Below are positions 19,212-47,065 of a stretch of 64,000 nucleotides of DNA, in pieces. This stretch comes from Minisyncoccota bacterium (lineage in GTDB: Bacteria; Patescibacteriota; Minisyncoccia; Phycocordibacterales; JABAAK01): NCBI GenBank assembly GCA_963668425.1, contig OY764332.1, positions 460,336-524,335 on the forward strand, read 5' to 3'. The notes under the pieces were generated by a model that did no database searches, was not told the DNA's origin, and saw only the letters and a list, made by a program, of their open reading frames with translations. Position numbers and translations under genes: made by a program. Each line of letters opens with the position of its first letter. The first letter of the stretch is position 1.

Positions 19212-19454
19212 GAATTTGTGTTTAAGAAAAGCGATAAATTATAGGAACCTACAAGGGGCTTGATTTTTGTGTATAACGAGAAAAAAAGAACATTGCCCTT
19301 CAAAGGGCAATTTTCTTTGCACTGATCTTTTAACAATTAGCATTGCAAATAGCATGAGCAATTCGTTCATCAAATATTGATGAATAATTGGAACACAAAA
19401 ATAAAAAAAATAATAAAAATAAAGAACGTAAGCGGTTTTTGATTTCCTGTGAAG

Positions 19455-22440
<2,986 letters not shown>

Positions 22441-22567
22441 TTTACAGGAAATCAAAAACCGTTTTTTATTGAGTATTTTTATTGAGTACACTGATGAGTT
22501 GCTCATGCTATTTGCAATGCACACGATCGGACATAGTCCGAATTTTATAGACACAATACATTGTTTT

Positions 22568-22680
22568 GTTCTGGTGATGAAACCGGAGGGGAAACACCTG
22601 TTCTCATTCCGAATACAGCCGTTAAGGCCTCCAGGGGCGATGGTACTGCTTTATAGCGGGAGAGTAGCTCGTCGCCAGTA
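22568..22680 (+). rRNA. rrf: 5S ribosomal RNA
   Basis: Has a CCGAATACAGCCGTTAAG loop-C-like region and the helix I pairing CTGGTGA / TCGCCAG. Confidence 0.7.
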
Positions 22681-25238: not shown

Positions 25239-25310
25239 TGCCGGATCGTCTAATTGGTAGGACGACGGGTTTTGATCCCGTTAATCTAGGTTCGAGTCCT
25301 AGTCCGGCAG
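25239..25310 (+). tRNA. tRNA-Gln (anticodon UUG)
   Basis: I folded the cloverleaf by hand: U1-A72 acceptor, anticodon loop TTTTGAT, T-loop TTCGAGT. Confidence 0.8.
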
Positions 25311-25339
25311 CTAACTAGTAAAGAGGGGGTGTTTAGTGA

Positions 25340-25843
25340 ATGGAGCAAAGGCATGTAATGAGTTCACGTGCTAATTCAAATAGACAGATTATTAAGAGAG
25401 GTTATGAAGAAGGCGTACTTTACCTTGTTCATGGTGATGAAATTGGGTTTGTTGATGAAGAGGATGGGGATGTCAGTGAGATTTCTGGGTTTATTGGAAT
25501 GCTTGAGCCGGGGACAACGTATATTCTTGCCACACGGTACGATGAAAAAAATGGCTGGCATACACTTATAACTCATCCGAATGGAATAACACCCCTGAGT
25601 CAAAATACTGGGTTAGGTGGTGATTCGAATGTTTTTATAGAGGATGATAATGATAGAATTGTAGCACTTAGAGAAGCATACAAAGATGAGATCTTGCTTG
25701 ATGTGGATGTGGCAAATGATAATGCAAGGAATAGCTATGCATCTTTGCGGAAATCAACGGAAAGGGATTTGGGGGAGGTTTCGGAAGAAGAAGTTAAAGA
25801 AGAGGTTCGAAAAAATGACTTTGAAGGTGATTTTCCTAGATGA
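25340..25843 (+). CDS. Hypothetical protein, truncated paralog of 51260..51910 (lacks the signal peptide)
   Basis: LEPGTTYILATRYDEKNGWHTLITHPNG and REAYKDEILLDVDVANDNARNSYASL align with the 51260 protein. A strong RBS precedes it. Confidence 0.55.
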   Translation: MEQRHVMSSRANSNRQIIKRGYEEGVLYLVHGDEIGFVDEEDGDVSEISGFIGMLEPGTTYILATRYDEKNGWHTLITHPNGITPLSQNTGLGGDSNVFIEDDNDRIVALREAYKDEILLDVDVANDNARNSYASLRKSTERDLGEVSEEEVKEEVRKNDFEGDFPR

Positions 25844-25919
25844 TTTTTTTGTGATTATGAAAAGATTATGAAAAACACGGCACCAAGTGGTGCCGTGCTG
25901 GTTATTGTCCCCTCATCTT

Positions 25920-26633
25920 TCATTCATAGTGAGGGATAATGAAGGCGAATCTGCCGCAATAGTCCTCAGGGTTAAGGGAATTGAATAATCTGTCTTGGTC
26001 TGTGTTGTTTGTAGTATTTTCTATCAGAGCGTTTGAGTTGAGCCAGAGTCCAATGTTGGTTTCTGGGTGTGGGGATGTGTCATCCCGCACTATACTGAAT
26101 ATCTGTGGTATGCCGTCGGCATACCAATTATTTTCTTCAGTTGCTATAAAGAATCCATGATACACTCCGTAGTTAGGTTGATCAGTAAACTGTAGGCGTA
26201 ACTGTACAGCAACTTCAGGTGGACATGGTGCATAACCAAACTCTTTCCCTTTTTCAAGGATATCTTTGAAGGATACTAATGCATCTTCTTCAAACCCTAA
26301 ATCAAAGAGGGAGAGGATTATTACCGCTACCTCACTCTCTTCCTTTGCGATTGGGAAGTTTGGGTGAGAGAGTGATTGCACTGACTGCTGGTCTACTAGA
26401 AATTTTTCTTCTCTAATCTTTCTTAAAAGATCAATGCCGGTTTTCTGCGTTCCAATAGTTAGCGTGGGAAATGGAACGTTTAAATCCCGATCCCCCTTTT
26501 CCATCTCAGGGCATGTGCCTGTATCTATGTTTTCTGAGCAAGAGGTAGTGAAGAGTAGTCCTGAAAAAACTAAGAAAATCAGGTTTGTTTTTATAAGGAA
26601 TGCAAGATTTTTCATGTCGCCCCCTTCATTCAT
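25920..26633 (-). CDS. Lipoprotein, paralog of 50488..51189
   Basis: Signal peptide plus Cys lipobox. The block CPPEVAVQLRLQFTDQ...DGIPQIFSIVRDDTSPHPETNIGL is shared with the 50488 protein. Confidence 0.6.
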   Translation of the reverse strand: MNEGGDMKNLAFLIKTNLIFLVFSGLLFTTSCSENIDTGTCPEMEKGDRDLNVPFPTLTIGTQKTGIDLLRKIREEKFLVDQQSVQSLSHPNFPIAKEESEVAVIILSLFDLGFEEDALVSFKDILEKGKEFGYAPCPPEVAVQLRLQFTDQPNYGVYHGFFIATEENNWYADGIPQIFSIVRDDTSPHPETNIGLWLNSNALIENTTNNTDQDRLFNSLNPEDYCGRFAFIIPHYE

Positions 26634-26829: not shown

Positions 26830-29800
26830 CTATTGTGCCAGGGTAGTGAAAGGTACTGGTATGCTTTTTTGCTCTTGTTGCCAAACATTGTCCACCCTAG
26901 GTATTACTTCTACAGCATATGCTGTATTTGATCGGAGTCCGTCTATTTTCTTATAGTTGGTAGATACAAACTGATACTGTGATGTATTGCTTTGGGCGCC
27001 TGTTTTCCACCACCTGACTGTGTACTGATCTGCCTTAGGTAGTGTTGGCCAGGTAGCCGTGGCGCTATCAGATGTGATAGATATTACAGAGAGGGAAATC
27101 TTCTCCTTCGCTATTGTATCATCATCATCTGCTATTGTTGTCGTTGCTGTGCCTTGGGTACTGGAGATTGTGTAGCCACTGCCAGCAGTTACGGTTACCG
27201 TTACCGAGCCGTCTGGTTCATCTACTTGGTCTCCATTCGCTGGGATGGTCAGTGTCGCTGTTCCACTTGTGGGGATAGTTACCGTCTGACTTCCAGCTGT
27301 TATACCATAGTTGCCACTTGCCGTAATTGATACCGTTACTGGCAGATCTGCTGTCGGTACTGGGCTCGCTGAGAGGGTGAATGTTGCACTGCTCCCCTCT
27401 GTTATACCGCCGTCAGTCCTGATACGTATCTCTGGGATGGAAGGCGTTACCCCATCATCATCTGCTATTGTTGTTGTTGCTGTGCCTTGGGTACTGGAGA
27501 TTGTGTAGCCACTGCCAGCAGTTACGGTTACCGTTACCGAGCCGTCTGGTTCATCTACTTGGTCTCCATTCGCTGGGATGGTCAGTGTCGCTGTTCCACT
27601 TGTGGGGATAGTTACCGTCTGACTTCCAGCTGTTATACCATAGTTGCCACTTGCCGTAATTGATACCGTTACTGGCAGATCTGCTGTCGGTACTGGGCTC
27701 GCTGAGAGGGTGAATGTTGCACTGCTCCCCTCTGTTATACCGCCGTCAGTCCTGATACGTATCTCTGGGATGGAAGGCGTTACCCCATCATCATCTGCTA
27801 TTGTTGTTGTTGCTGTGCCTTGGGTACTGGAGATTGTGTAGCCACTGCCAGCAGTTACGGTTACCGTTACCGAGCCGTCTGGTTCATCTACTTGGTCTCC
27901 ATTCGCTGGGATGGTCAGTGTCGCTGTTCCACTTGTGGGGATAGTTACCGTCTGACTTCCAGCTGTTATACCATAGTTGCCACTTGCCGTAATTGATACC
28001 GTTACTGGCAGATCTGCTGTCGGTACTGGGCTCGCTGAGAGGGTGAATGTTGCACTGCTCCCCTCTGTTATACCGCCGTCAGTCCTGATACGTATCTCTG
28101 GGATGGAAGGCGTTACCCCATCATCATCTGCTATTGTTGTTGTTGCTGTGCCTTGGGTACTGGAGATTGTGTAGCCACTGCCAGCAGTTACGGTTACCGT
28201 TACCGAGCCGTCTGGTTCATCTACTTGGTCTCCATTCGCTGGGATGGTCAGTGTCGCTGTTCCACTTGTGGGGATAGTTACCGTCTGACTTCCAGCTGTT
28301 ATACCATAGTTGCCACTTGCCGTAATTGATACCGTTACTGGCAGATCTGCTGTCGGTACTGGGCTCGCTGAGAGGGTGAATGTTGCACTGCTCCCCTCTG
28401 TTATACCGCCGTCAGTCCTGATACGTATCTCTGGGATGGAAGGCGTTACCCCATCATCATCTGCTATTGTTGTTGTTGCTGTGCCTTGGGTACTGGAGAT
28501 TGTGTAGCCACTGCCAGCAGTTACGGTTACCGTTACCGAGCCGTCTGGTTCATCTACTTGGTCTCCATTCGCTGGGATGGTCAGTGTCGCTGTTCCACTT
28601 GTGGGGATAGTTACCGTCTGACTTCCAGCTGTTATACCATAGTTGCCACTTGCCGTAATTGATACCGTTACTGGCAGATCTGCTGTCGGTACTGGGCTCG
28701 CTGAGAGGGTGAATGTTGCACTGCTCCCCTCTGTTATACCGCCGTCAGTCCTGATACGTATCTCTGGGATGGAAGGCGTTACCCCATCATCATCTGCTAT
28801 TGTTGTTGTTGCTGTGCCTTGGGTACTGGAGATTGTGTAGCCACTGCCAGCAGTTACGGTTACCGTTACCGAGCCGTCTGGTTCATCTACTTGGTCTCCA
28901 TTCGCTGGGATGGTCAGTGTCGCTGTTCCACTTGTGGGGATAGTTACCGTCTGACTTCCAGCTGTTATACCATAGTTGCCACTTGCCGTAATTGATACCG
29001 TTACTGGCAGATCTGCTGTCGGTACTGGGCTCGCTGAGAGGGTGAATGTTGCACTGCTCCCCTCTGTTATACCGCCGTCAGTCCTGATACGTATCTCTGG
29101 GATGGAAGGCACTGGATCATTGTGAGAGAGTAGTATGATACGTGGTATTGTTGGTTCTACTTGGTATAAGTCAGGACGAGTCGTAGCAAACCCGTTAGGT
29201 GTTCGTACCACAATATACTGTAAGGCGTCAAGATCGGGAAAGGTGATTTTTTGAGCATCGGCTTCCATTGTGAGTACCTCTGAGTCAGACCCAGATTTAG
29301 TTTTTGGCTCTATGGTCAGAGGGAAATCCCGTTTCCGACTGATAAACAGGTATTGCTTTTGTTTGTTAATTGTTATATGCAATGAGTCATCATCTATATG
29401 TTTGATGGCTAAGATATTATGGGCGGGGTCTATCGTTATTCCGGGCAGGTTGCCGATCAAGGATAGGGTGGCTGTTGCTGCGGCGTCCTGCTCTACCTTA
29501 TTGTCGTCTTTGGTTTCTATCTCGATGTAACCGCGATTTTCTCCTATCTGCATTTGTTCCACTTTCCATTCGATGTCATGATCGGCAGGTTCAGGATCGG
29601 AGTTTTGAGGGATGATAATGAAATTTCCTGCCGTGATGGTAAAGCCCAGCGATAATGTCTGTGTTGGAATTCTGAATGGAATTCGCCGGCTGGAAGTGAA
29701 ATATATTCGATATATCTGATTTCCTTCCGTAATGTTGACGGAAGGAGGTCCGGTAAGACGGATGGTGATGGGCGTGTCATTGTCTACTATCTGCACGGTT

Positions 29801-32800
29801 TTGTCATAGGTCTTGCCGTTATACCGTTCGTCAGTAGAACTCAGTGTAAATCTGATAATCACGGTATCCAGCTCGTTGGTGTCACTGTCTGGTGTCCCGA
29901 GAATGGAAATTGCTTCATCTGTATAGTCGGTTGGACTGAAAGTCAGCGGGCCTCCACTTATGGTGGCATGACTGCTGCCTGTGCTGATTGTTACCTGTGC
30001 TGTTACCTGTGCCGTTGGGGCTGAGTCCAAAGATACCTGCAATGTACCGGCGTTTTCCTCACCAATGTAAAAATCCTGATGCTCGTCTATTCCCTGAGGT
30101 GTTAGCGTTATCCACTGTACATGGTTGGAGGGATCAAAGAGGTACAAGTTGACAGGAGAACCTTGGGTCACTGGATCTGGGTTTCTCGTGTCTGTCTTAG
30201 TGAAGGACAGATCGCCAATAGTTACTGTTACTGCTTCAATGTCGGCCTCTATCGTACTGTCATCAGGAGCGTTTAATGTGAGCGTTGCAGTGGTTGCTGT
30301 GCTTGGGGCAAAAGACACAGTAGCATTGGCGGTGCCAACTCCTGTGTAGGTAACCCCTGCTGCTGCTGTCTCGGTTAGCGTGTAGTCAGTGCCTTGGTCA
30401 GCGTCGCCGGTAACAGTTACTGGCACAGTCAGTGCTTCTCCGGTTTGCAGTGGTCTGTTGAGGGTTAGGGTAATGATGGAATCCTCACCACCTTCAAGTA
30501 TGATTTTCCGCGAGGCATCCAATGTCACCTGTATTGGCTCGTCGTCAATGATGAGTACCGTTGCCGCTGCATTGCTACCGGTGGTAATGGCGGTTGGGCT
30601 GTTTGGTAGTTGATTGGCGTTGATAGTGATGGTGAACTGCTCGTTACCTTCGGCTAGATCATCATTAGGTATATTTGCAGAAAATGTGGCAGTGGACTCA
30701 CCTGCTTTGATAACGATTCCATTGTCGGCGAGGAGGAAGTCCGTTCCTCGGGTTGCGCCCTGTTCTGTGATAGTGATGGGTAGGGTGAGATCACTTCCCA
30801 ATGGTGCACTTAATGTAACCGTTGCTTCAAGCAGTCCAGATGCCTCGTTGACGACAAACATGTTTTTGGAGAATTGGACAGTTGATGTTGCTGGTGGGTC
30901 CTGAATGGTGCTGCTGTATATTGTGCCTTGAGCACCTCCGTGCAGGTTAACGCCGGAGGTTGTGTCTACATCAAGGGTGATGGTGATGGTTTCTGGCGCT
31001 GTCTCGGCGGTTGAGTCCGTCAATACTTGTAGGAATTCGTACATCTGTATATCGGCAATGCTATCTGTATTTTCCGTTGGATCACCTCCGGTAAAGGTGA
31101 TACTTGGACTGTTTCCATTAAAGTTGTTACATACCGCCTTCATATTTTTCAAATTATCAAATCGAGGACAGAGCAGTTTATAGTCCGTGCCGTAGGTTGC
31201 TGTCCCCCCGAAGGTGAATGGTATTGTTATCTCTTCAGGTGCGATTAACTCTCGACTGAGTGTAGTGTTGAACTGATAGATTCCTCCTTCTACTAGGTGC
31301 TCTGGGTTTCCACCAATTACAGGAGTTGCGGATATTAAGGTTGCCTGGCTGTCGTAAATTGGCAGATTGACGGAGTTGGCAGATCCTAAGGTGTAGACGC
31401 CATTGTAATGAGGATCAATGGTTACGGTAATCTGTCCGTTACCAGTGGCCGCTGGTTGGTCAATGCCGTCATTTCGTGTTTCTACCTTGATAGTGGCGGT
31501 GGTTGCTTCTGCAGGTATGGTGGCAGTGAAGAGTCCTGTTTTATCGTCGTCAATGTAGTCATGACCCGGTCCGTCAGTAACGCGATACTTTACTTCTAGG
31601 TCAATATCTGATGATTGGTTGGCGGTGATTGTGAATCTTGCTTCACCTCCTTCTACTACCTCAGTAGCACTATTCATAGGTGCGATGGTAAGCTCCACCT
31701 TTTCCCAAATAGACACACTTGACCCTTCGGTGCTTAAAAGATTCAGCCAACCGGGAAGATTGTTTGTTTGTATGGAGATCTCAAACATTTCAACATTCTC
31801 GTCAATGCTGTCTTTTGCAGTGGGTATTGTGAAGGTTTTTGATTGCTCTCCTTTGGTAAATTTGACTTGGTAAGGTCCTGCTGTATAGTCAGCTGGTGCA
31901 GTTGCGGTTTTGTCTTTGGTATTGACGGTGATGGTTACGTCTTCTTGAGCCGGTGCTGTGAGATGTAGGGTAACTTTTGCACCATCACCTTCACCAACTT
32001 CAAGATTTTTTCTACTGTCATCAAATAGTATTCCAGTTTTCTCTACCTGAAATACTGGAGTGATGCCGTAGAGGCGGTGCTTTGTCGTGTTAGAGGCAGT
32101 GTTGGAAGTGTTGGTATTGCCGATAGGATTGATGCCTGTGCCTGTTACTAACCCTACGGCTCCCCACAAGACCTGACTGGCTCCTAGTGGATTTGTGTTG
32201 TGTTTGGTGCCGTCGTCGTTGGAACCAGTCCACACGGTTATATGGTCTGGGGTTATGCGGTTGCCGGACTCGTCTCTTGGTAGGTTTTGCCGTAAGGGTT
32301 TCCAAGAGCCGTCGTAGAAGTCGGCGTAAGAGTCGGCGACTTTGTCGCCACTTACCCAGTAAATGGGGACATTGTCGTTGGTATCCTGCCATGTTGAGGT
32401 GTTGTTGTTCCACATAGCAGTGTTGTCACGAGCATCAATGGTGCTGGTGGATCCGACTATTTTTATGTTTGCTATTGTGTTGCTGTCTACCTCATCGTTT
32501 GTGAAGGCGTTGTTATTACCAGCGGCGGTCTGTACAAGCGTGTTATAGGTGTTACTATCTGTTGAGTCAGCAGTGTGCTGAGTGGAGGTGATGAATATGA
32601 GGCGGAACTTGTCGTCAGTGCCAATTCCATCGGGGATCAGGGATGAGCTTGGCTGAATCATAAATGGATTGCTCACACTCTGCGCTTCTGCTGGGGCTTG
32701 TGGTCCGAACAAAGATGCTAGTCCAATTGCCACAAGTAAGGCGAGTACGATTGCATAGTGAAATACGTTTTTACTTTGATTGAATACATGTTGATGTCTT

Positions 32801-32877
32801 GGTGTATGCATGATTCTATCTTTTATTATCACACGTTCGGCTTGTTGAATCAAGGTATTTGCTATATTTGCCATCAC
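26830..32877 (-). CDS. Giant (2015 aa) cell-surface protein with multiple Calx-beta-like beta-sandwich domains, six identical 111-aa tandem repeats and a C-terminal fibronectin-III-like domain
   Basis: An N-terminal signal/TM (AIVLALLVAIGLASLF) is followed by Calx-beta-like repeats (APADYTAGPYQVKFTKGEQSKTFTIPTAKDSIDENVEMFEISI). The six 111-aa copies each end ADDDG. The C-terminus (WPTLPKADQYTVRWW...NTAYAVEV) is FN3-like. Confidence 0.8.
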   Translation of the reverse strand: MMANIANTLIQQAERVIIKDRIMHTPRHQHVFNQSKNVFHYAIVLALLVAIGLASLFGPQAPAEAQSVSNPFMIQPSSSLIPDGIGTDDKFRLIFITSTQHTADSTDSNTYNTLVQTAAGNNNAFTNDEVDSNTIANIKIVGSTSTIDARDNTAMWNNNTSTWQDTNDNVPIYWVSGDKVADSYADFYDGSWKPLRQNLPRDESGNRITPDHITVWTGSNDDGTKHNTNPLGASQVLWGAVGLVTGTGINPIGNTNTSNTASNTTKHRLYGITPVFQVEKTGILFDDSRKNLEVGEGDGAKVTLHLTAPAQEDVTITVNTKDKTATAPADYTAGPYQVKFTKGEQSKTFTIPTAKDSIDENVEMFEISIQTNNLPGWLNLLSTEGSSVSIWEKVELTIAPMNSATEVVEGGEARFTITANQSSDIDLEVKYRVTDGPGHDYIDDDKTGLFTATIPAEATTATIKVETRNDGIDQPAATGNGQITVTIDPHYNGVYTLGSANSVNLPIYDSQATLISATPVIGGNPEHLVEGGIYQFNTTLSRELIAPEEITIPFTFGGTATYGTDYKLLCPRFDNLKNMKAVCNNFNGNSPSITFTGGDPTENTDSIADIQMYEFLQVLTDSTAETAPETITITLDVDTTSGVNLHGGAQGTIYSSTIQDPPATSTVQFSKNMFVVNEASGLLEATVTLSAPLGSDLTLPITITEQGATRGTDFLLADNGIVIKAGESTATFSANIPNDDLAEGNEQFTITINANQLPNSPTAITTGSNAAATVLIIDDEPIQVTLDASRKIILEGGEDSIITLTLNRPLQTGEALTVPVTVTGDADQGTDYTLTETAAAGVTYTGVGTANATVSFAPSTATTATLTLNAPDDSTIEADIEAVTVTIGDLSFTKTDTRNPDPVTQGSPVNLYLFDPSNHVQWITLTPQGIDEHQDFYIGEENAGTLQVSLDSAPTAQVTAQVTISTGSSHATISGGPLTFSPTDYTDEAISILGTPDSDTNELDTVIIRFTLSSTDERYNGKTYDKTVQIVDNDTPITIRLTGPPSVNITEGNQIYRIYFTSSRRIPFRIPTQTLSLGFTITAGNFIIIPQNSDPEPADHDIEWKVEQMQIGENRGYIEIETKDDNKVEQDAAATATLSLIGNLPGITIDPAHNILAIKHIDDDSLHITINKQKQYLFISRKRDFPLTIEPKTKSGSDSEVLTMEADAQKITFPDLDALQYIVVRTPNGFATTRPDLYQVEPTIPRIILLSHNDPVPSIPEIRIRTDGGITEGSSATFTLSASPVPTADLPVTVSITASGNYGITAGSQTVTIPTSGTATLTIPANGDQVDEPDGSVTVTVTAGSGYTISSTQGTATTTIADDDGVTPSIPEIRIRTDGGITEGSSATFTLSASPVPTADLPVTVSITASGNYGITAGSQTVTIPTSGTATLTIPANGDQVDEPDGSVTVTVTAGSGYTISSTQGTATTTIADDDGVTPSIPEIRIRTDGGITEGSSATFTLSASPVPTADLPVTVSITASGNYGITAGSQTVTIPTSGTATLTIPANGDQVDEPDGSVTVTVTAGSGYTISSTQGTATTTIADDDGVTPSIPEIRIRTDGGITEGSSATFTLSASPVPTADLPVTVSITASGNYGITAGSQTVTIPTSGTATLTIPANGDQVDEPDGSVTVTVTAGSGYTISSTQGTATTTIADDDGVTPSIPEIRIRTDGGITEGSSATFTLSASPVPTADLPVTVSITASGNYGITAGSQTVTIPTSGTATLTIPANGDQVDEPDGSVTVTVTAGSGYTISSTQGTATTTIADDDGVTPSIPEIRIRTDGGITEGSSATFTLSASPVPTADLPVTVSITASGNYGITAGSQTVTIPTSGTATLTIPANGDQVDEPDGSVTVTVTAGSGYTISSTQGTATTTIADDDDTIAKEKISLSVISITSDSATATWPTLPKADQYTVRWWKTGAQSNTSQYQFVSTNYKKIDGLRSNTAYAVEVIPRVDNVWQQEQKSIPVPFTTLAQ
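27115..29112. repeat. Six perfect tandem copies of a 333-bp coding repeat inside the giant surface-protein gene
   Basis: Five identical 65-aa shadow ORFs on the plus strand sit exactly 333 nt apart. The protein repeat VTPSIPEIRIRTDGG...TTTIADDDG is identical six times. Confidence 0.9.
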
Positions 32878-32985: not shown

Positions 32986-33531
32986 TTATTTGCTTTCTCG
33001 GAGGGTTTTTTCCACGAGGTCCCAGAAGCGTTTTGAGTGGTTCATTTCTTTGAGGTGGCAGAGTTCGTGGACGATGAGCTTGTCTGCCTCTTTTTTTGGG
33101 AGAAAGATTATTTTGTAGTTAAACGTGAGATTTCTACTTGATGAACAAATACCCCAACTTGCTTTGAGCTGCTTTGCCCATATGTTGTTAAAGGTGAATT
33201 TGTTTTTTCTATTCCAGTATGTTACTTTTTCTTCACAAAATCGTAAAGCCCTTTCTTTGTGTTTGAGAAAATGTTCACGATCGTCTATTGCAAGGTTTTC
33301 GTTCATTCCGTATCTTTTTGTGAAGGACTCAACACGTTCCGCTATCCATGGATGCTTTTCTCGGACAAATGTTTCAACTGTTGTTTTTTTGACCCACTTT
33401 GGTTTTGTGACTGTTATTTTTCCGCCGATGCCGATTGCTAGTTTGAGATGTTGTGCCTTTGGATGGTTAACCAGTTCATACTCTAGATATCGGTTTTTAT
33501 ATCTCATTTTTTGTCGTGAGCGAGTAGCCAT
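32986..33531 (-). CDS. YgjP/DUF45-family metal-dependent hydrolase (SprT-like)
   Basis: HELCHLKEMNHSKRFW zinc-binding motif near the C-terminus. Confidence 0.55.
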   Translation of the reverse strand: MATRSRQKMRYKNRYLEYELVNHPKAQHLKLAIGIGGKITVTKPKWVKKTTVETFVREKHPWIAERVESFTKRYGMNENLAIDDREHFLKHKERALRFCEEKVTYWNRKNKFTFNNIWAKQLKASWGICSSSRNLTFNYKIIFLPKKEADKLIVHELCHLKEMNHSKRFWDLVEKTLRESK

Positions 33532-33798
33532 ATACCTCTCAGTATAGCCATCTACTTCTTAAAAAGCAATCTCCTGATACCGTATCTTGGCACTGCGATA
33601 TGTCGTTTGTATGGAATGAAAAGCCCTATAAAATAAGGATATTTTTGTTATTTTAGGGTGACAATGGGGTAATGGGTTGATAAGGGTGGAAAATTGACAA
33701 TACGTCAATATTGCTATATAATATCTGTATGTTCTATTTTATGGAACAGTCGTATTTTTGTATTTTTTTTACTTAAAAATTTTGAATTGGAGGGAAAA

Positions 33799-34785
33799 AT
33801 GAGAATATTTTTCTGTTTTGCGTTGGCTGTTTGTGTCGGGACCTTTTTGGGGCTTTTTTCCTCTGAGGAGTATGCTTCAAGCAGTGAGGCCGCCGTTGAG
33901 ACGGTGGCCACGAAGAAGGTTTCTTCTATCAGATTCCCCAAACGGGGCGAGGTCTTGAAGGCGGCCAATAAGTTGGCGCCTCATACTAGAGTGCCGGTAA
34001 GTATCTTGCTCGCGATTTGTGAGCAGGAAACCAACCTAGGCGCCAACCAGGGAGAGGTTTCTCGCGCTCTGCGTCGTGCCAGGAGTATCAAGGAACAGAT
34101 TATCCTTGATGTTCTGGCGAAGAAGCAGGGCATGAGTGACCCTGACCTGCTCAAGGTTTCGCCTAATGCAGCCTTTGGCTTGGTCCAGGCCCGGCCGAGT
34201 TATTATCTCCATCATACTGGCATGGAGATTGACTTCGGCAGTACGCCGACAGTGCTCTTACACGGGACAGATCAGTATCGGAATATGTCCCGTGGTGAAA
34301 GGGCGGCAGGGATCAAGGCGATTCAGCACAAGCTCGGCTTGCGTGGGGATGACCTTGATGGTGTTGTAGGGGGGAAGACCCTTGACGCCATAAGGCGTGC
34401 CGCTGGTACTCGGTCGTTTGACCGGCTTGCTAAGTACCGGCTGGTAAAAAAATTCTTTGCCGATCAGGTAAAGGTGAAGACCGCCAAAAGCAAAGACAAA
34501 GTGTGGCGGCGGATTTGCCTTGCTGAGGGCAAGGATCCTCGTAAGGCAAAGTACTTCATGCCGGACCTCTGGGATCCGCTTCACGCCTTTGCCTATGCAA
34601 GCGTCCACATTGAGGACGACCTGCGTTTGGCAGGTGGGAAGTTGGACATTGCCATTGCCGCGTACTATACCGGCATTGGCAGCGCAAAGCAAGGTTGCAG
34701 GGATGGGGTTTGGTATAGAAGGCAAGTGAAAGCAAAGGCAAAGAAGTATGCTTCTGCCTCACTTGCTAAGTCAAATGTCTCCTGA
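33799..34785 (+). CDS. Secreted protein with lytic-transglycosylase-like N-terminal region and a peptidoglycan-binding-like repeat
   Basis: Has a signal peptide, CEQETNLGANQGE...AFGLVQ (SLT-like) and KLGLRGDDLDGVVGGKTLDAIRRAAG (PG_binding_1-like). The RBS GGAGGG precedes the ATG at 33799. Confidence 0.45.
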   Translation: MRIFFCFALAVCVGTFLGLFSSEEYASSSEAAVETVATKKVSSIRFPKRGEVLKAANKLAPHTRVPVSILLAICEQETNLGANQGEVSRALRRARSIKEQIILDVLAKKQGMSDPDLLKVSPNAAFGLVQARPSYYLHHTGMEIDFGSTPTVLLHGTDQYRNMSRGERAAGIKAIQHKLGLRGDDLDGVVGGKTLDAIRRAAGTRSFDRLAKYRLVKKFFADQVKVKTAKSKDKVWRRICLAEGKDPRKAKYFMPDLWDPLHAFAYASVHIEDDLRLAGGKLDIAIAAYYTGIGSAKQGCRDGVWYRRQVKAKAKKYASASLAKSNVS

Positions 34786-40058: not shown

Positions 40059-43000
40059 ATGGTGTACGATCCTGAAAGAATAGTAAGCATTGGGGAGCTA
40101 GAAAAACGAGGGAAGACCGTGCGTTTTGGTATTAAGGAAAAGGATAGGTCTCGGCATATTTATGTTATCGGACAGACGGGTACTGGTAAGTCAACATTGT
40201 TGGAGATGTTGGCGATGCAGGATATACGAAACGGTACCGGTTTGATTTTTATGGATCCGCATGGGCAGTCAGTTGAAGCATTGTTGCAATATGTAACACG
40301 GGACTATTTGGATAACATTATCTACTTTGCGCCACATCATCAGGAAAGACCGATTGGGTTGAATATTATGGAAGATATTGGCTATGATAAGCGGCATTTG
40401 GTGGTAAGTAGTTTGATGGCGTCGTTTGAGAAAATTTGGGGAGCTGGAACCTGGTCAGATAGGATGGCATACATTTTGCAGAATACGTTACTGGCGTTGA
40501 TTGAGTATCCTGGTACCACCTTGCTTGATGTTGGACGAATGTATAGTAGTAAAGGTTTTCGGGAGAAAGTTGTTGCTAACTTAAAAGACCCACAGGTGCG
40601 GAAGTACTGGGTTGAGGAATTTGCAAACTATACCGAGCGATACGCTCAGGAGGCAACACCATCTATTCAGAACAAGCTCGGTCAGTTTACCTCTAATCCG
40701 TTGATGCGAAATATTATTGGACAGAAGGACTCTGCGTTTAATTTTCGGGAGATTATGGATGAGGGGAAAATACTATTGGTGAATTTATCAAAAGGGCAGA
40801 TTGGTGAGAATAATGCACGAATGCTTGGTGTGTTGTTCACGACGAAGATTTATCTTGCCGCACTATCGCGAAGTAATATGACGAAGGCAGAGTTAGAGGC
40901 GGCGAATCCTTGTAATTTCTTTGTTGATGAGTTTCAGTCATTTGCGAATTCTTCTTTTTCTGATATTTTGTCTGAGGCGCGAAAATATAAGTTAAATCTG
41001 GTGATGGCGCATCAGTATTTAGGACAGTTATACTCTGATGACTCTGGTGGCGGAGATGTGATTCGGGATGCGGTGTTTGGTAATGTGGGAACCTTTGTAT
41101 CATTTCGGGTTGGTCCGGTTGATGCGGAGATTATTTCTAAACAATTTGCGCCGGATATTGCGGAGGAGGACTTGGTTGCGTTGCCACGGTATCATATATA
41201 CCTTACGTTGAATATTGATGGTGCCGGCTCTACACCATTTTCTGCAAGGACTTTTTATGAGCCAGCGCCGGAGAGTATGTCATTGGAGGATGAGGTTGTG
41301 CAGCGAACAATGGATGTTTACGGTGCTGATCGAGCGGCTGTAGAGAAATTGGTTGAGGATAATTTGGCGGAGGATGTTCAATCTAATGAAGTAGCAAAGA
41401 AATCTGGTGGACAGAAGGGTGGTGGGAAGAAATCTGGCTGGCAGCAGGGTGGTGGTGGACAAAGATCTGGCGGACAGAGGTCTGGTGGACAGAAGGGTGC
41501 ACATGGTGGTGACCGGAGAGATCTAGAGACCCATACCCCATTGAAGGGGTTGGTACAACAGATGATGCAGCGACCTGGGCAACAGAAGGAGGAGAAATCA
41601 AAAGAGCGAGGAGATGATGGTGAGGGATTTGTAAAAAAGAGGGTAGATGCGTCTGATCAGCCAAGGATGGATAGGTCAAAAGAACGTGTTGGGCAGAGGA
41701 GTGAAAGTAGGAGAATCCTGAAGAAGAAGGTGGATGTGTTGGAGCAGCGAGGAGCGAATGAGCCAAAGGAGCGTGTTGAGCAGAAGGGTGAGGTTGGAAA
41801 GGTTGTGAAGAAGGATGTTGCTATGTCAGTGACTGATATGCCGAAGAAAGGGCAGAGTGTCGTTGAGAGGTCAGAAGATGTTCGTGTTGTGGATACCCCA
41901 AAAGTACAGCACTCTTTTCCTGCAGAAGAACAGCGTAGGAGGCGAGGACGAGGGTCGGAAGGCGCTGCATCGGAGCGTGAACAGAATGACGACAGAAAAC
42001 GGTCTGCATCAAGTGGCAAGGTTCGTCGTGAAGAATCTGTTGCCATGCCGAGTCCTAATCAACAACGTACTCAGCGTAGGTCAAATCGTAGAGATGTTAA
42101 GCAGGATGATGGTGGTGGACAAAGATCTGGCGGACAGAGGTCTGGTGGACAGAAGGGTGAGGTTGGAAAGGTTGTGAAGAAGGATGTTGCTATGTCAGTG
42201 ACTGATATGCCGAAGAAAGGGCAGAGTGTCGTTGAGAGGTCAGAAGATGTTCGTGTTGTGGATACCCCAAAAGTACAGCACTCTTTTCCTGCAGAAGAAC
42301 AGCGTAGGAGGCGAGGACGAGGGTCGGAAGGCGCTGCATCGGAGCGTGAACAGAATGACGACAGAAAACGGTCTGCATCAAGTGGCAAGGTTCGTCGTGA
42401 AGAATCTGTTGCCATGCCGAGTCCTAATCAACAACGTACTCAGCGTAGGTCAAATCGTAGAGATGTTAAGCAGGATGATGGTGGTGGACAAAGATCTGGC
42501 GGACAGAGGTCTGGTGGACAGAAGGGTGAGGTTGGAAAGGTTGTGAAGAAGGATGTTGCTATGTCAGTGACTGATATGCCGAAGAAAGGGCAGAGTGTCG
42601 TTGAGAGGTCAGAAGATGTTCGTGTTGTGGATACCCCAAAAGTACAGCACTCTTTTCCTGCAGAAGAACAGCGTAGGAGGCGAGGACGAGGGTCGGAAGG
42701 CGCTGCATCGGAGCGTGAACAGAATGACGACAGAAAACGGTCTGCATCAAGTGGCAAGGTTCGTCGTGAAGAATCTGTTGCCATGCCGAGTCCTAATCAA
42801 CAACGTACTCAGCGTAGGTCAAATCGTAGAGATGTTAAGCAGGATGGAGAGGGTTCTGTACGGAATAGAGGGCAGCGACAGAAGAGGCAAAAGAACCATG
42901 GTGGAGGTGGTGGTCAGAGACATGCTCCCATAGATAAATTTGTTGTACGTACAGAGAAAGAGAAGGGTGGTTCTACAAGCAAGCAAGGAGTTTCTGCTGA

Positions 43001-43379
43001 CGTTAAGCAGGACGAAGCACGCGTAGAACAGCAGGTGAAAGAGAGGCGACCGCAACTTGCTGACGCTCTGCGACGACCAAATGGTGTTGTTGTTGGCACT
43101 GTTTCGCGAAGTATGGCGACACAGCAGTCAGTGACTGAACAACGTACTGAGCAGCCGGATGTCTCAGGTGGGCAGCAAGGCGCACAGGATGCAAAGCAGG
43201 AGCATTCTGGGAAACAGCAGCAGCGTGGGCATGCTGGTGGATTGGGTGATTTGGTAAAGACGACAAAGGCAAGCGGATTGCGAAAAGATTTGAAAGTTGC
43301 ACCGAAAAAAGAGAAGCATGCGCCGCCGATCAGATATGAGGAAGGGTGGTTTTCGATTGGGGATCTTGCCCGGAAGTAG
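40059..43379 (+). CDS. TraD/TraG/VirD4-like (type IV coupling protein family) P-loop ATPase without a TM anchor, with a long basic low-complexity C-terminal tail containing tandem repeats
   Basis: Walker A IGQTGTGKST, the MDPHG motif and Walker B FFVDEFQSF. The C-terminal 550 aa are rich in GGQRSGGQ and RR/KK. Confidence 0.6.
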   Translation: MVYDPERIVSIGELEKRGKTVRFGIKEKDRSRHIYVIGQTGTGKSTLLEMLAMQDIRNGTGLIFMDPHGQSVEALLQYVTRDYLDNIIYFAPHHQERPIGLNIMEDIGYDKRHLVVSSLMASFEKIWGAGTWSDRMAYILQNTLLALIEYPGTTLLDVGRMYSSKGFREKVVANLKDPQVRKYWVEEFANYTERYAQEATPSIQNKLGQFTSNPLMRNIIGQKDSAFNFREIMDEGKILLVNLSKGQIGENNARMLGVLFTTKIYLAALSRSNMTKAELEAANPCNFFVDEFQSFANSSFSDILSEARKYKLNLVMAHQYLGQLYSDDSGGGDVIRDAVFGNVGTFVSFRVGPVDAEIISKQFAPDIAEEDLVALPRYHIYLTLNIDGAGSTPFSARTFYEPAPESMSLEDEVVQRTMDVYGADRAAVEKLVEDNLAEDVQSNEVAKKSGGQKGGGKKSGWQQGGGGQRSGGQRSGGQKGAHGGDRRDLETHTPLKGLVQQMMQRPGQQKEEKSKERGDDGEGFVKKRVDASDQPRMDRSKERVGQRSESRRILKKKVDVLEQRGANEPKERVEQKGEVGKVVKKDVAMSVTDMPKKGQSVVERSEDVRVVDTPKVQHSFPAEEQRRRRGRGSEGAASEREQNDDRKRSASSGKVRREESVAMPSPNQQRTQRRSNRRDVKQDDGGGQRSGGQRSGGQKGEVGKVVKKDVAMSVTDMPKKGQSVVERSEDVRVVDTPKVQHSFPAEEQRRRRGRGSEGAASEREQNDDRKRSASSGKVRREESVAMPSPNQQRTQRRSNRRDVKQDDGGGQRSGGQRSGGQKGEVGKVVKKDVAMSVTDMPKKGQSVVERSEDVRVVDTPKVQHSFPAEEQRRRRGRGSEGAASEREQNDDRKRSASSGKVRREESVAMPSPNQQRTQRRSNRRDVKQDGEGSVRNRGQRQKRQKNHGGGGGQRHAPIDKFVVRTEKEKGGSTSKQGVSADVKQDEARVEQQVKERRPQLADALRRPNGVVVGTVSRSMATQQSVTEQRTEQPDVSGGQQGAQDAKQEHSGKQQQRGHAGGLGDLVKTTKASGLRKDLKVAPKKEKHAPPIRYEEGWFSIGDLARK
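41789..42850. repeat. About 2.9 perfect tandem copies of a 369-bp coding repeat in the coupling-protein-like gene tail
   Basis: Identical 106-aa shadow ORFs lie at 41857, 42226 and 42595, with period 369. A partial extra copy sits near 41455. Confidence 0.85.
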
Positions 43380-43564: not shown

Positions 43565-46500
43565 ATGGTTGAAAAAAGAGGTGAAAAGGTTTCCGATCGG
43601 GAGGAGCGGATATTGCGGTTTTGGCGAGAGAATGCGGTTTTTGAGAAAAGTGAAGGGCGAGAGAAGAAAGGTTTTTTGTGGCGTTTATTGCGAACAGTAT
43701 TCCCTAAAAGGCGATTTATTTTTTATGATGGTCCGCCATTTGCGACGGGTTTGCCGCATTTTGGTAACCTCTTGGCGAGTATTGTGAAAGACGCAGTGCC
43801 GCGTTATAAGACAATGCGAGGGTATCAGGTTTCTCGGCGTTGGGGGTGGGATTGTCATGGATTACCGCTTGAAGTGGAGATGGAAAAGAAGATCGGGACG
43901 AATACGAAACGGGATATTGAGGAGTATGGAATAGAGAAGTTTAATCGTGGTATTTGTGATACTATTTTTACCTATATAGATGAGTGGAAGAGGATTATTC
44001 CGCGAATTGGTCGGTGGGTGGATATGGAGCGTGATTACCGTACTATCAGTACATCGTATATGGAATCAGTATGGTCGGTGTTTCATCGGTTACATACACG
44101 CGGTTTTGTCAGTAATGGTTTCAAGTCGCTGTATTTTTGTCCGCGCTGTTCAACCACTATTTCAAATGCAGAAGTTGCTGATACGTATGAGATGTTGACT
44201 GATACAGCGGTGTTTGTACTTTTTCCTCTGAAGGATGATCCGGATACTTATTTAGTTGCGTGGACGACGACCCCATGGACATTATTTGGTAATGTTGCAC
44301 TTGGTGTGGATGTTGGTATGGATTATACGGTTGTTGAAAAAGATGGGAAAAAATATATACTTCAGAAGAGTGCAGCTGATGTTGTTTCTGGTGGTACCGT
44401 TGTTGGAGTGGAGAAAGGTGCTGCATTGCTTGGGAAGGAGTATGTGCCGCCGTTTGACCATCTCTATGTTGAGGATGGTGAGCAGGTGAAAGCGAAGTTG
44501 TGGCGTGTGCAAAAGGTGTCGTATATTGAGGAGGGGGTTGGCACTGGTATTGTGCATCTTGCTCCGGCGTATGGAGCAGAGGATATGGAGGTTGCACTGA
44601 GGGAAGGTTTGCCGATTCGGCATCATGTTAGCAAGGAGGGTGTTTTTGTCCCGCAGATAGAGGGATATGCCGGTTTGCGTCCTAAAGAGGTGGGGAATCC
44701 AAATGATGTTGATGAAAAGATATTGCAGGATTTACGGAATAAGGGTGTACTGCTCTATGATGAGGCAATAGAGCATATGTATCCGGTGTGTTGGCGCTGT
44801 AAGACACCACTTCTGAACTATGCTACAGATTCGTGGTTTGTGCATTCGGAGCGGTTTAAAGATCGTATGGTTTCTGAAAACAAAAAAGTCGTTTGGGTGC
44901 CGGCACATATTCGGGATGGTCGGTTTGGTAATTGGTTGGCAGATGCGCGTGAATGGGCGGTGTCACGGGATCGCTTCTGGGGTGCGCCGGTGCCAACGTG
45001 GAAAGTTGAAAAAACAGGTGCACATATCATCGTTCGTTCATTGGAGGATATGTGCAAGAGGATGCGTCCGAGAAATCGCTATTTTTTTGTGCGACATGGA
45101 CATTCGATAAGCAATGAAAAAGGTGTTTTGAACTGCAAAGAAGAGGAGGGTGATGGATTGACTGAGAAGGGAAGAGAGCAGGCGGTAGCAGTTGTACAAA
45201 AATTGAAAGATGTAAAGCCGACTGTTATTTTTTATTCACCCCTGGCTCGCACACGAGAAACGGCAATGTGTATTGCAAAAGAAACTGGTGCGCAGATGGT
45301 TGAGGAGCCGTTGCTGACTGAGTTGCAGGTGCCGAGTTTACATAATCGGTCAATACGCGAATTGTGGAGATCAGTTCATTCGCTTGATGCGTTTCGTAAT
45401 TTGGACAAATCTATCGCTGGAGGTGAATCATTTTTAGATGTGTATCGGCGAGTATTGCAATTTTTTGAAAAAGTAGATCAGGAATATAAAGATGCGAATA
45501 TTGTGGTGGTTACACATCGCTCGGTTGTTAACGCGGCACGCTCGGTTGCGCCGACACATGCGCAGTTTACGAAGCTGTATAGGAAAGGCACTGTGATCAA
45601 ACCAATTCCTAATGGAGGAGTGTGTAGCGTTCGGTATGTACATTTACAGAGGGACGAGAATGGGGAAGTTGATTTGCATCGGCCGTATGTTGATGGAGTG
45701 GTGTTGTATGATGTGGACGGCAATCCGGCGTATCACACCAAGGAGGTGTTTGACTGTTGGTTTGAGTCGGGTGCTATGCCGTACGGGTCGCATCATTATC
45801 CATTTGAGAATAAGTGGTCGTTTAATCCGATGTTGCAACGTGGCTTTCCGGCACATTTTATTTGTGAAGGGTTGGATCAGACACGTGGGTGGTTTTATAG
45901 CTTGATGGCAATTGGTGTTGGTGCGTTTGATCAGTCGCCGTATCGTAATGTGGTGGTAACCGGTCTGATTCGTGCCGCGGATGGAAAAAAGATGAGTAAA
46001 AGCTTGCAGAATTACACTGATCCGATGGAACTTGTTGAGCGCTATGGCGCGGATGCACTGCGACATTACCTTCTTGGTTCTTCAGTAGTGCGTGGGGAAG
46101 ATCTTGATTTTAAGGATGAACAGATTGATGAGATTTATAAGAAGGTATATACTCGGCTACATAATTGCCTTAATTTTTATATGATATATGCACATCTGCC
46201 GCATCTTGGAGGCAGCAGGAATGTATTGGATATCTATATTCATTCTCGACTTGCTCAAACTCGGAATGCGATGATGAAAGGGTTTGAATTGTATCATGTT
46301 GATGAGGCGGTCGCACCAATAGGATCATTTGTGGAGGATTTATCAACTTGGTATATTCGTCGTTCACGGGATAGGATAAAGAATCGGACGGATGACGGTG
46401 CGCAGGCGCGTGAGACATTGCGATTTGTATTGACTGAATTCGCGAAATGTCTTGCTCCGATTGCGCCATTTTATGCTGAATATTTGTTTTTGGAAATGCG

Positions 46501-47065
46501 GAAGCATCATCCGCATAAATTCTTTTTGCCAGAGAGTGTACACCTTGCGCGATGGCCACAGAGGATGTTGATTCAGAAGGAGGCGATAGAGAAAACTGTC
46601 GCGGTGCGTGATATTGCTTCATCTGTGCATGAACAACGAGCTGAGGCGGGGATAAAGGTGCGGCAGCCGTTGTCAAAGGTGATACTACAGCAGGAGGTGG
46701 ATGAAGGGCAGAAAGAATTGCTTAAAGCCGAGGTGAATGTTAAAGAGGTAATTGTTGATCCTGAGGCCGTGCGGTCTGTGGTACTGCATACTGAGCTTAC
46801 GGATGCGTTGCGTGCTGAGGGGTTTGTGCGGGAGTATATTCGTAATGTTCAGAAGATGCGAAAAGAGAAAGGATTTTCACCTACAAAAATGGCGGACACG
46901 TTATTTGTATGTGTGTTTGACGAGCAGAAAAAATATCTGCAGGATCATGAAGTGAAAATTAAGCAAGAGGTACAGGTGCGTTCTGTTGTGTACACTGAGA
47001 CAAGTCCGAAGGATGCTACTGTGTTTAGCATAGATCGTATGGAAGTTGTATCAGATATTGTGTAA
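43565..47065 (+). CDS. ileS: Isoleucine--tRNA ligase with an inserted histidine-phosphatase (PGM-family) domain
   Basis: HIGH-like PHFGN, KMSKS, and the editing and anticodon-binding domains are all present. A 190-aa module with RHG, SPLARTRETA and VVVTHRSV motifs is inserted in frame. Confidence 0.85.
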   Translation: MVEKRGEKVSDREERILRFWRENAVFEKSEGREKKGFLWRLLRTVFPKRRFIFYDGPPFATGLPHFGNLLASIVKDAVPRYKTMRGYQVSRRWGWDCHGLPLEVEMEKKIGTNTKRDIEEYGIEKFNRGICDTIFTYIDEWKRIIPRIGRWVDMERDYRTISTSYMESVWSVFHRLHTRGFVSNGFKSLYFCPRCSTTISNAEVADTYEMLTDTAVFVLFPLKDDPDTYLVAWTTTPWTLFGNVALGVDVGMDYTVVEKDGKKYILQKSAADVVSGGTVVGVEKGAALLGKEYVPPFDHLYVEDGEQVKAKLWRVQKVSYIEEGVGTGIVHLAPAYGAEDMEVALREGLPIRHHVSKEGVFVPQIEGYAGLRPKEVGNPNDVDEKILQDLRNKGVLLYDEAIEHMYPVCWRCKTPLLNYATDSWFVHSERFKDRMVSENKKVVWVPAHIRDGRFGNWLADAREWAVSRDRFWGAPVPTWKVEKTGAHIIVRSLEDMCKRMRPRNRYFFVRHGHSISNEKGVLNCKEEEGDGLTEKGREQAVAVVQKLKDVKPTVIFYSPLARTRETAMCIAKETGAQMVEEPLLTELQVPSLHNRSIRELWRSVHSLDAFRNLDKSIAGGESFLDVYRRVLQFFEKVDQEYKDANIVVVTHRSVVNAARSVAPTHAQFTKLYRKGTVIKPIPNGGVCSVRYVHLQRDENGEVDLHRPYVDGVVLYDVDGNPAYHTKEVFDCWFESGAMPYGSHHYPFENKWSFNPMLQRGFPAHFICEGLDQTRGWFYSLMAIGVGAFDQSPYRNVVVTGLIRAADGKKMSKSLQNYTDPMELVERYGADALRHYLLGSSVVRGEDLDFKDEQIDEIYKKVYTRLHNCLNFYMIYAHLPHLGGSRNVLDIYIHSRLAQTRNAMMKGFELYHVDEAVAPIGSFVEDLSTWYIRRSRDRIKNRTDDGAQARETLRFVLTEFAKCLAPIAPFYAEYLFLEMRKHHPHKFFLPESVHLARWPQRMLIQKEAIEKTVAVRDIASSVHEQRAEAGIKVRQPLSKVILQQEVDEGQKELLKAEVNVKEVIVDPEAVRSVVLHTELTDALRAEGFVREYIRNVQKMRKEKGFSPTKMADTLFVCVFDEQKKYLQDHEVKIKQEVQVRSVVYTETSPKDATVFSIDRMEVVSDIV
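45070..45650 (+). other. Histidine-phosphatase (phosphoglycerate-mutase-like) domain embedded in IleRS between the WGAPVP and DLHRPYVD blocks
   Basis: FVRHGHSISN (the catalytic His of the RHG motif), FYSPLARTRETA, GGESFLDVYRRV and IVVVTHRSVV appear in canonical order. Confidence 0.75.

Follow-up and report, generated by a model that had tools for sequence, protein, structure and literature searches.

Periscope Proteins carry stalks of folded tandem domains that are identical at the DNA level, and recombination changes the number of these domains and with it the distance to which an N-terminal binding domain projects; SasG, Rib, Sgo_0707, CdrA and Esp are included in the group (Whelan et al. 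2021, PMC8201768). Prolines in the linkers between such domains are associated with elongated arrays (PMC8201768). In Leptospira, the outer-surface Len proteins, which have been modelled as endostatin-like, bind laminin, fibronectin and factor H (PMC2063517). Every patescibacterium in cultivation is an obligate episymbiont, and apart from type IV pili little is known of the means by which hosts are recognised and held (PMC12206443). Here we analysed a 64,000-nucleotide stretch of contig OY764332.1 from a Minisyncoccota bacterium (the window, to which all positions refer unless another genome is named), in which a single open reading frame (ORF), here called the giant gene, encodes a putative surface protein with a perfect tandem repeat (Table 1).

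The gene probably encodes a Sec-exported, elongated and modular surface protein that acts like a Periscope-type fibrillar adhesin. In the proposed mechanism, the protein would be exported by the Sec pathway and its signal peptide cleaved at AEA/QS. An N-terminal endostatin-like domain of the C-type-lectin fold would serve as a ligand-binding head, and some 14 sandwiches of the Calx-beta fold would form the stalk, which Ca2+ probably stiffens by way of the conserved D-x-x-D-E-x-D-G and DDD motifs, with a C-terminal fibronectin type III (FN3) domain as the cell-proximal end. Homologous recombination within the gene, as unequal crossover or gene conversion, would repeatedly duplicate, delete and homogenise the six C-proximal stalk modules; each gain or loss of a unit would keep the frame, alter the length of the stalk and with it the reach of the head, and renew the exposed sequence. 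A variable-length fibrillar surface protein is of a known kind, whilst the combination of domains and the phylum are new. A literature search that combined Calx-beta with Patescibacteria returned no paper.

Tandem Repeats Finder reported the array with a period of 333, 6.0 copies, 99% matches and zero indels. Base-by-base comparison at the same period gave 5.98 copies with one mismatch (27142 versus 27475) among 1,658 positions; the mismatch, at 27142, is synonymous and lies in the last unit. The initial annotation had described six modules identical over 1998 bp. All six units, of 111 amino acids (aa), are indeed identical in protein sequence, and at the DNA level the identical stretch becomes 1,991 bp with the one synonymous change; the first and last units differ at their outermost edges, where unique sequence begins. 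Identity over ~2 kb cannot have arisen by chance. The linkers between the units contain proline (GVTPSIPE). Because the unit is 111 codons and its length is divisible by three, unit gain or loss stays in frame. On/off phase variation, which had been suggested alongside antigenic and length variation as a consequence of changing repeat number, was therefore rejected, whilst length or antigenic variation is to be expected.

Three congeneric genomes (L001, L002 and L003; ClpB 95-96% identical) carry a syntenic ortholog, and the orthologs have in common the YgjP-like metallopeptidase gene, the giant gene and ftsX/ftsE, with clpB nearby. The unit counts in the four genomes are 2, 6, 6 and 12+1. Within a genome, the units share amino acid/nucleotide identities of 100/99.9% in the window, 99.7/98.8% in L001, 100/99.7% in L003 and 68.5/76.5% in L002, against 53-66% at the amino acid level between genomes. 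The seven variable sites in L001, mostly synonymous, are common to neighbouring units, and the offsets of two exact duplications in L002 (blocks of 1,006 and 494 bp) are whole units. Judged from these comparisons, the array is in concerted evolution, with intragenic recombination continuing to add and remove units, in line with the recent expansion or concerted homogenisation proposed at the outset. The short gene call in L003 (P0004) was considered as a truncated gene and rejected, since upstream of the called start the frame runs on into a complete signal peptide; the gene caller had picked an internal start, and the gene is thus full length. L002 also has a Cys-rich insert of ~70 aa (~9 Cys; L002 17500-17800, P0002 aa ~2527-2598) between unit 12 and the final unit, which is absent from the other orthologs. 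Exact-sequence look-ups and metagenome scans, using a repeat 40-mer and a protein query, yielded no further copies, and a scan of genome-collection contigs returned only two distant Calx-beta relatives, so the genome of the window is not one of the species representatives.

The rest of the protein also evolves rapidly. Its non-repeated part is 60-75% identical between genomes, compared with 93-98% for the neighbours ClpB, FtsX and FtsE and 86-90% for the YgjP-like protein. The endostatin-like domain, at 74-80% between orthologs, lies above the average of the non-repeated region, and the last module ahead of the array (aa 1167-1256) is the least conserved, at 30-48%. Because its position is conserved, its divergence is several-fold greater than that of its housekeeping neighbours and its stalk is variable in length, the giant gene is a concrete candidate for host attachment or specificity in a Paceibacteria-type bacterium of the Candidate Phyla Radiation (CPR). 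By analogy with known fibrillar proteins, the product is probably an adhesin, and a host-attachment fibre is what we infer.

The AlphaFold2 model of the repeat unit (pLDDT 93.3) has seven strands, and the 21 best Foldseek matches to it in the PDB were all Calx-beta structures, including NCX1 CBD1 (E 6e-7), CALX CBD1 (TM 0.76) and integrin beta4. A profile built from ten distinct units of the four genomes was aligned by hhalign to the protein's own Calx-beta modules over its full length and in register (prob 81.7%, E 1.1e-5); a PDB sequence search with the repeat profile gave insignificant matches only. The best Pfam match of the unit was the LapA domain (PF20579), with 19.4 bits at a cut-off of 27. 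The modelled fold thus supports a Calx-beta-like unit, which by the Pfam criterion is not a member of the family. Accordingly, the earlier designation of the repeats as Calx-beta-like stands for the fold, where Calx-beta structures and no unrelated fold came at the top, and fails for Pfam Calx-beta, which the six identical units miss.

Across the repeat units, the acidic positions D72, D75, E76, D78 and D106-108 show little or no variation (D72, E76 and D106 invariant; D75 and D78 ≥90% conserved). In alignments, this motif falls on the D..DE motif of the Calx-beta modules of the protein itself, and the latter motif on the NCX1 stretch DDDIFEED, part of the CBD1 Ca2+ site. From these motifs, the acidic loops of the unit (D-x-x-D-E-x-D-G and DDD) are putative Ca2+ ligands.

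Pfam Calx-beta (PF03160) scored 107.8 bits over the whole protein, versus a gathering threshold of 27, and when the protein was scanned in pieces, aa 283-395 gave 66.5 bits and aa 665-782 gave 64.9 bits. Weak Calx-beta-like modules (aa 396-512, 783-904, 929-1036 and ~1108-1166) were found with the protein's own profiles, and the first of these, module 2, is the closest to the repeat unit among the non-repeated modules. The C-terminal 97 aa matched fn3 (PF00041) at 26.2 bits (E 9.6e-6) versus a cut-off of 25, a small margin, and FN3-related families likewise match there. The Pfam check suggested in the initial annotation has thus returned Calx-beta for two modules and fn3 for the C-terminus, with no Calx-beta for the six identical units; the overall description, a beta-sandwich protein ending in an FN3-like domain, was correct.

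The giant protein is T/S/D-rich, with only two cysteines, and contains one hydrophobic segment only, at the N-terminus (aa ~38-60). An AxA/QSV junction after this segment is kept in 4/4 orthologs, and conservation restarts exactly after the junction. The N-terminus is, from these features, probably a Sec signal peptide that is probably cleaved at AEA/QS. An identical protein in the public database, encoded on a contig of 696,550 bp, has 2014 aa and starts at the ATG at 32874. Alignment with the orthologs leads us to prefer the ATG at 32811 (M23, 'MHTPRHQ...'), which sequence comparison favours as a likelier real start than either the GTG or the ATG at 32874. A scan for promoters and terminators was uninformative, with counts not above those in shuffled sequence.

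The region between the signal peptide and the first Calx-beta module (aa 66-282) had no significant match in Pfam, NCBIfam or PDB sequence searches. Its AlphaFold2 model, built from 32 sequences (pLDDT 87.3, pTM 0.86), matched only five structures in the PDB below E = 1e-3 by Foldseek, all of them endostatins (collagen XVIII/XV NC1), with E values of 5e-6 to 7e-5, prob 1.0 and target-normalised TM scores of 0.66-0.70 over ~194 columns. The next matches were C-type-lectin-like proteins, with E above 0.4. On this model the region would be an endostatin-like domain of the C-type-lectin fold. The N-terminal 400 aa, originally left unassigned pending structure prediction, can therefore be divided into a signal peptide, the predicted endostatin-like domain and one Calx-beta module.

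An exhaustive HMMER search with the head domain collected 2,907 cluster representatives (50% identity clusters) at E ≤ 1e-3 and 1,542 at E ≤ 1e-10. A protein often has several copies of the domain (14 at most), the longest such protein having 7,601 aa, and FN3, cadherin, LRR, SWM_repeat and Calx-beta domains occur alongside it. The family shares the motif FRLLFVTS…YN.FVQ…GST..DARDNT…PIYW..G.KVAD.Y.DFYDGSW…WTGS..DGT…YGLSPV. Pfam Endostatin (PF06482) did not match the head domain of the window at E ≤ 1 and touched one of the 32 aligned family members (E = 0.016). Pfam and NCBIfam found nothing for the domain in six multi-copy relatives, and small proteins that consist solely of it had no Pfam match. 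This is a large endostatin-fold family missed by Pfam, NCBIfam and PDB sequence searches, and it merits a family model. A bolder idea, to which we give only tentative credence, is that the head belongs to a very large family of binding modules in uncultured bacteria, one that no Pfam or NCBIfam model picked up, and that in this CPR lineage it is a determinant of host recognition whose reach and surface are tuned by the fast-turnover Calx-beta stalk. If this is true, the protein would be a candidate for the factor that gives Paceibacteria episymbiosis its specificity. Outside the orthologs, the closest carriers of the endostatin-like domain are on multi-Mb contigs. The G+C content is 48.4% in the giant gene and 52.0% in the repeats, versus 44.8% in the whole window, and acquisition from larger-genome bacteria would fit both observations.

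Several points tell against a Periscope-type adhesin. The 100% identity and the six copies are assembly values, and consensus polishing can inflate identity, whilst the copy-number comparison covers four congeneric genomes, not strains of one population. A single repeat unit had no Calx-beta match in Pfam at E ≤ 10, no Pfam threshold being reached. A search of the giant protein for LPXTG, a C-terminal transmembrane segment, a lipobox and the repeats-in-toxin (RTX) motif GGxGxD found none of them; a cell anchor was not recognised, so attachment to the cell and the identity of the distal end are conjectural. Among the relatives, the endostatin-like domain tends to be internal and to occur several times per protein, with only 37 of 384 instances beginning within the first 100 aa, and a tip position is no rule of the family.

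The first of these points raises the alternative that the array is real but that its six copies, its perfect identity or both are products of assembly or polishing, the true number being different or heterogeneous in the population. Perfect tandem repeats of 2 kb are well known to mislead assemblers, and the ortholog in L001, apparently a long-read assembly from its contig naming, retains seven variable sites among its units. A second perfect array in the window, 369 bp x 2.9 with 0 mismatches, could also reflect consensus homogenisation. It is in frame (2.89 copies) in the charged C-terminal tail of a 1106-aa DUF87/TrwB (VirD4-like) ATPase, and the L002 ortholog (921 aa) has one diverged copy only and lacks the triplication; either tandem duplication is very active in the lineage, or polishing has homogenised the copies. 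However, the 333-bp array keeps the reading frame and passes cleanly into unique sequence at both edges, homologous arrays occupy the same position in three independent assemblies of relatives, and a single contig of 697 kb with a six-copy array would imply reads longer than the array. We therefore regard an artefact of this kind as rather unlikely. For genome curation, both arrays (27120-29110 and 41.8-42.8 kb) are spots where the copy number needs verification.

The missing anchor bears on two further alternatives. A sortase-anchored adhesin was rejected, as LPXTG is absent from the protein, and a type I secretion system (T1SS)/RTX adhesin was rejected, as the RTX motif is absent and a Sec signal is present. 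Of the earlier alternatives 'secreted or anchored', the N-terminal signal with its conserved AxA/QSV junction agrees with the first, and no anchor motif was found in the protein for the second. With no C-terminal anchor found and the sole hydrophobic segment at the N-terminus, the orientation might be reversed, with an uncleaved N-terminal membrane anchor and a distal FN3 domain, or the protein might be released as a soluble multivalent lectin or effector. The canonical AxA/Q site, with conservation resuming right after it in four orthologs, suggests instead that the N-terminus is cleaved, and in the Periscope and fibrillar-adhesin class it is the N-terminal domain that is projected (PMC8201768); reversal or release thus appears improbable. 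Equally, the protein might be a structural component of the envelope, of a surface layer or of a matrix, or a scaffold that binds Ca2+ but no specific ligand, in which the repeats only add bulk. Calx-beta modules of characterised proteins (the PDB matches) do bind Ca2+, and the giant protein has neither an adhesive domain of proven function nor a recognised anchor motif. We nevertheless expect little from this explanation, since a signal peptide, a distinct globular N-terminal domain, a long homogeneous stalk and fast lineage-specific divergence are typical of variable fibrillar adhesins (PMC8201768, PMC8286594), and the known endostatin-fold proteins, endostatin itself and Leptospira Len, are binding modules (PMC2063517). 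The Periscope-type adhesin remains the reading that we prefer.

Table 1. Features of the giant gene, its repeat arrays and neighbouring loci. Positions are those of the window.
Feature	Position	Strand	Remarks
Giant putative surface protein ORF	26830..32877	minus	2015 codons from GTG, intact; stop codon 26830-26832
Predicted Sec-type signal peptide, aa 23-65	32683..32811	minus	hydrophobic segment aa ~38-60, ends AEA/QSV; read from sequence
Predicted endostatin-like (C-type-lectin-fold) domain, aa 66-282	32032..32682	minus	putative ligand-binding head; AlphaFold2/Foldseek
Calx-beta module 1, aa 283-395	31693..32031	minus	significant in Pfam
Module 2, Calx-beta-like, aa 396-512	31342..31692	minus	repeat-profile i-E 2.6e-10
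Module 3, unassigned, aa 513-664	30886..31341	minus	holds both cysteines of the protein (570, 583)
Calx-beta module 4, aa 665-782	30532..30885	minus	significant in Pfam; sequence match to NCX1 CBD1
Modules 5-8, weak Calx-beta-like or unassigned beta-rich, aa 783-1256	29111..30531	minus	
Array of six 333-bp units (111 aa each), aa ~1257-1922	27120..29110	minus	Tandem Repeats Finder, base comparison, AlphaFold2
C-terminal FN3 domain, aa 1927-2015	26833..27099	minus	stop codon directly after
Array in the window			5.98 x 333 bp
Array in L001			6.0 x 327 bp
Array in L003			2.0 x 333 bp
Array in L002			12 units (~318 bp) of two alternating types (6 x 651 bp), Cys-rich insert, one further unit
23S and 5S rRNA genes	19448-22680	plus	
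Inserted tRNA-Gln gene, acidic ORF and putative lipoprotein gene between the giant gene and ftsX	25239-26633		
YgjP-like HEXXH metallopeptidase gene	32986-33531	minus	
Fast-evolving protein gene	33694-34785	plus	
VirD4-like ATPase gene	40059-43379	plus	
Second array	41781-42846		within the VirD4-like ATPase gene
Isoleucyl-tRNA synthetase-like gene	43565-47065	plus	

The genomic context fits the organism assumed in this account. The best named relatives of the adjacent ClpB are Candidatus Kaiserbacteria (73% identity), 'Patescibacteria group' and Paceibacterota, and the contigs of close relatives measure 0.6-0.85 Mb, including one of 647,271 bp that is flagged as circular. The 6-kb giant gene takes up about 0.9% of its own ~0.7-Mb contig. 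The 23S and 5S rRNA genes have no adjoining 16S gene, an unlinked rRNA operon. The ClpB relatives, the contig sizes and the 23S-5S pair without 16S support a small-genome CPR bacterium that is Paceibacteria/Kaiserbacteria-like, consistent with the small-genome, host-associated bacterium of the initial annotation.

In 4/4 genomes the YgjP-like metallopeptidase gene precedes the giant gene on the same strand, in the window by ~110 bp. On the other side, between the giant gene and ftsX, are a tRNA-Gln gene, a 167-aa acidic ORF (plus strand) and a 237-aa putative lipoprotein gene (minus strand; 'LFTTSC'), a block that is an insertion relative to the three orthologous loci. The fast-evolving protein listed in Table 1 shares 53-56% identity between genomes that have 95% identity in ClpB. 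Inspection by eye points to a signal peptide that starts at an internal ATG and to two motifs, one lytic-transglycosylase-like (EQETNLG) and one peptidoglycan-binding-like; Pfam gave no match to the protein, which is possibly a host-cell-wall-directed enzyme. The isoleucyl-tRNA synthetase-like gene has an inserted histidine-phosphatase domain (His_Phos_1, aa 507-660), and the same insertion is found in its L002 ortholog.

Among described systems, the giant protein is comparable to the Periscope Proteins in its predicted secretion, its N-terminal non-repeat domain and its stalk of folded tandem domains with near-100% DNA identity, and also in having domain termini at opposite ends of the fold, proline linkers and a repeat number that differs among close relatives. 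It differs in its Calx-beta-fold stalk and endostatin-like head, in the lack of a recognisable LPXTG or other anchor and in coming from an uncultured CPR organism, and here the variation is between congeneric genomes only, not strains. With fibrillar adhesins more generally (Monzon et al., PMC8286594, PMC9210967) it shares the logic of an adhesive domain plus a stalk, and fast evolution, but its head domain is without a Pfam model. LapA-type giant T1SS adhesins likewise have long arrays of ~100-aa beta-sandwich repeats, and a LapA domain was the best sub-threshold match of the unit; however, the giant protein carries a Sec signal at its N-terminus and lacks both RTX nonapeptides and a T1SS signal at the C-terminus.

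At the level of single domains, the Calx-beta modules CBD1-CBD2 of NCX1/CALX and that of integrin beta4 are likewise sandwiches of seven strands and have acidic D..DE.. and DDD residues at the positions of the Ca2+ sites, and two modules of the giant protein pass the Pfam threshold and match NCX1 by sequence (E 4e-12). In contrast, the six identical units are sub-threshold in Pfam and lack the 'tA..g.Dy' motif, and the bacterial domain would form an extracellular stalk rather than a cytosolic Ca2+ sensor. The head resembles the endostatin of collagens XVIII/XV in predicted fold (Foldseek E 5e-6, TM ~0.7), at a sequence identity of 12-14%. For endostatin-like surface modules in bacteria, the Leptospira Len proteins are a precedent; the likeness of the head to these Len/DUF1554 proteins is one of described fold.

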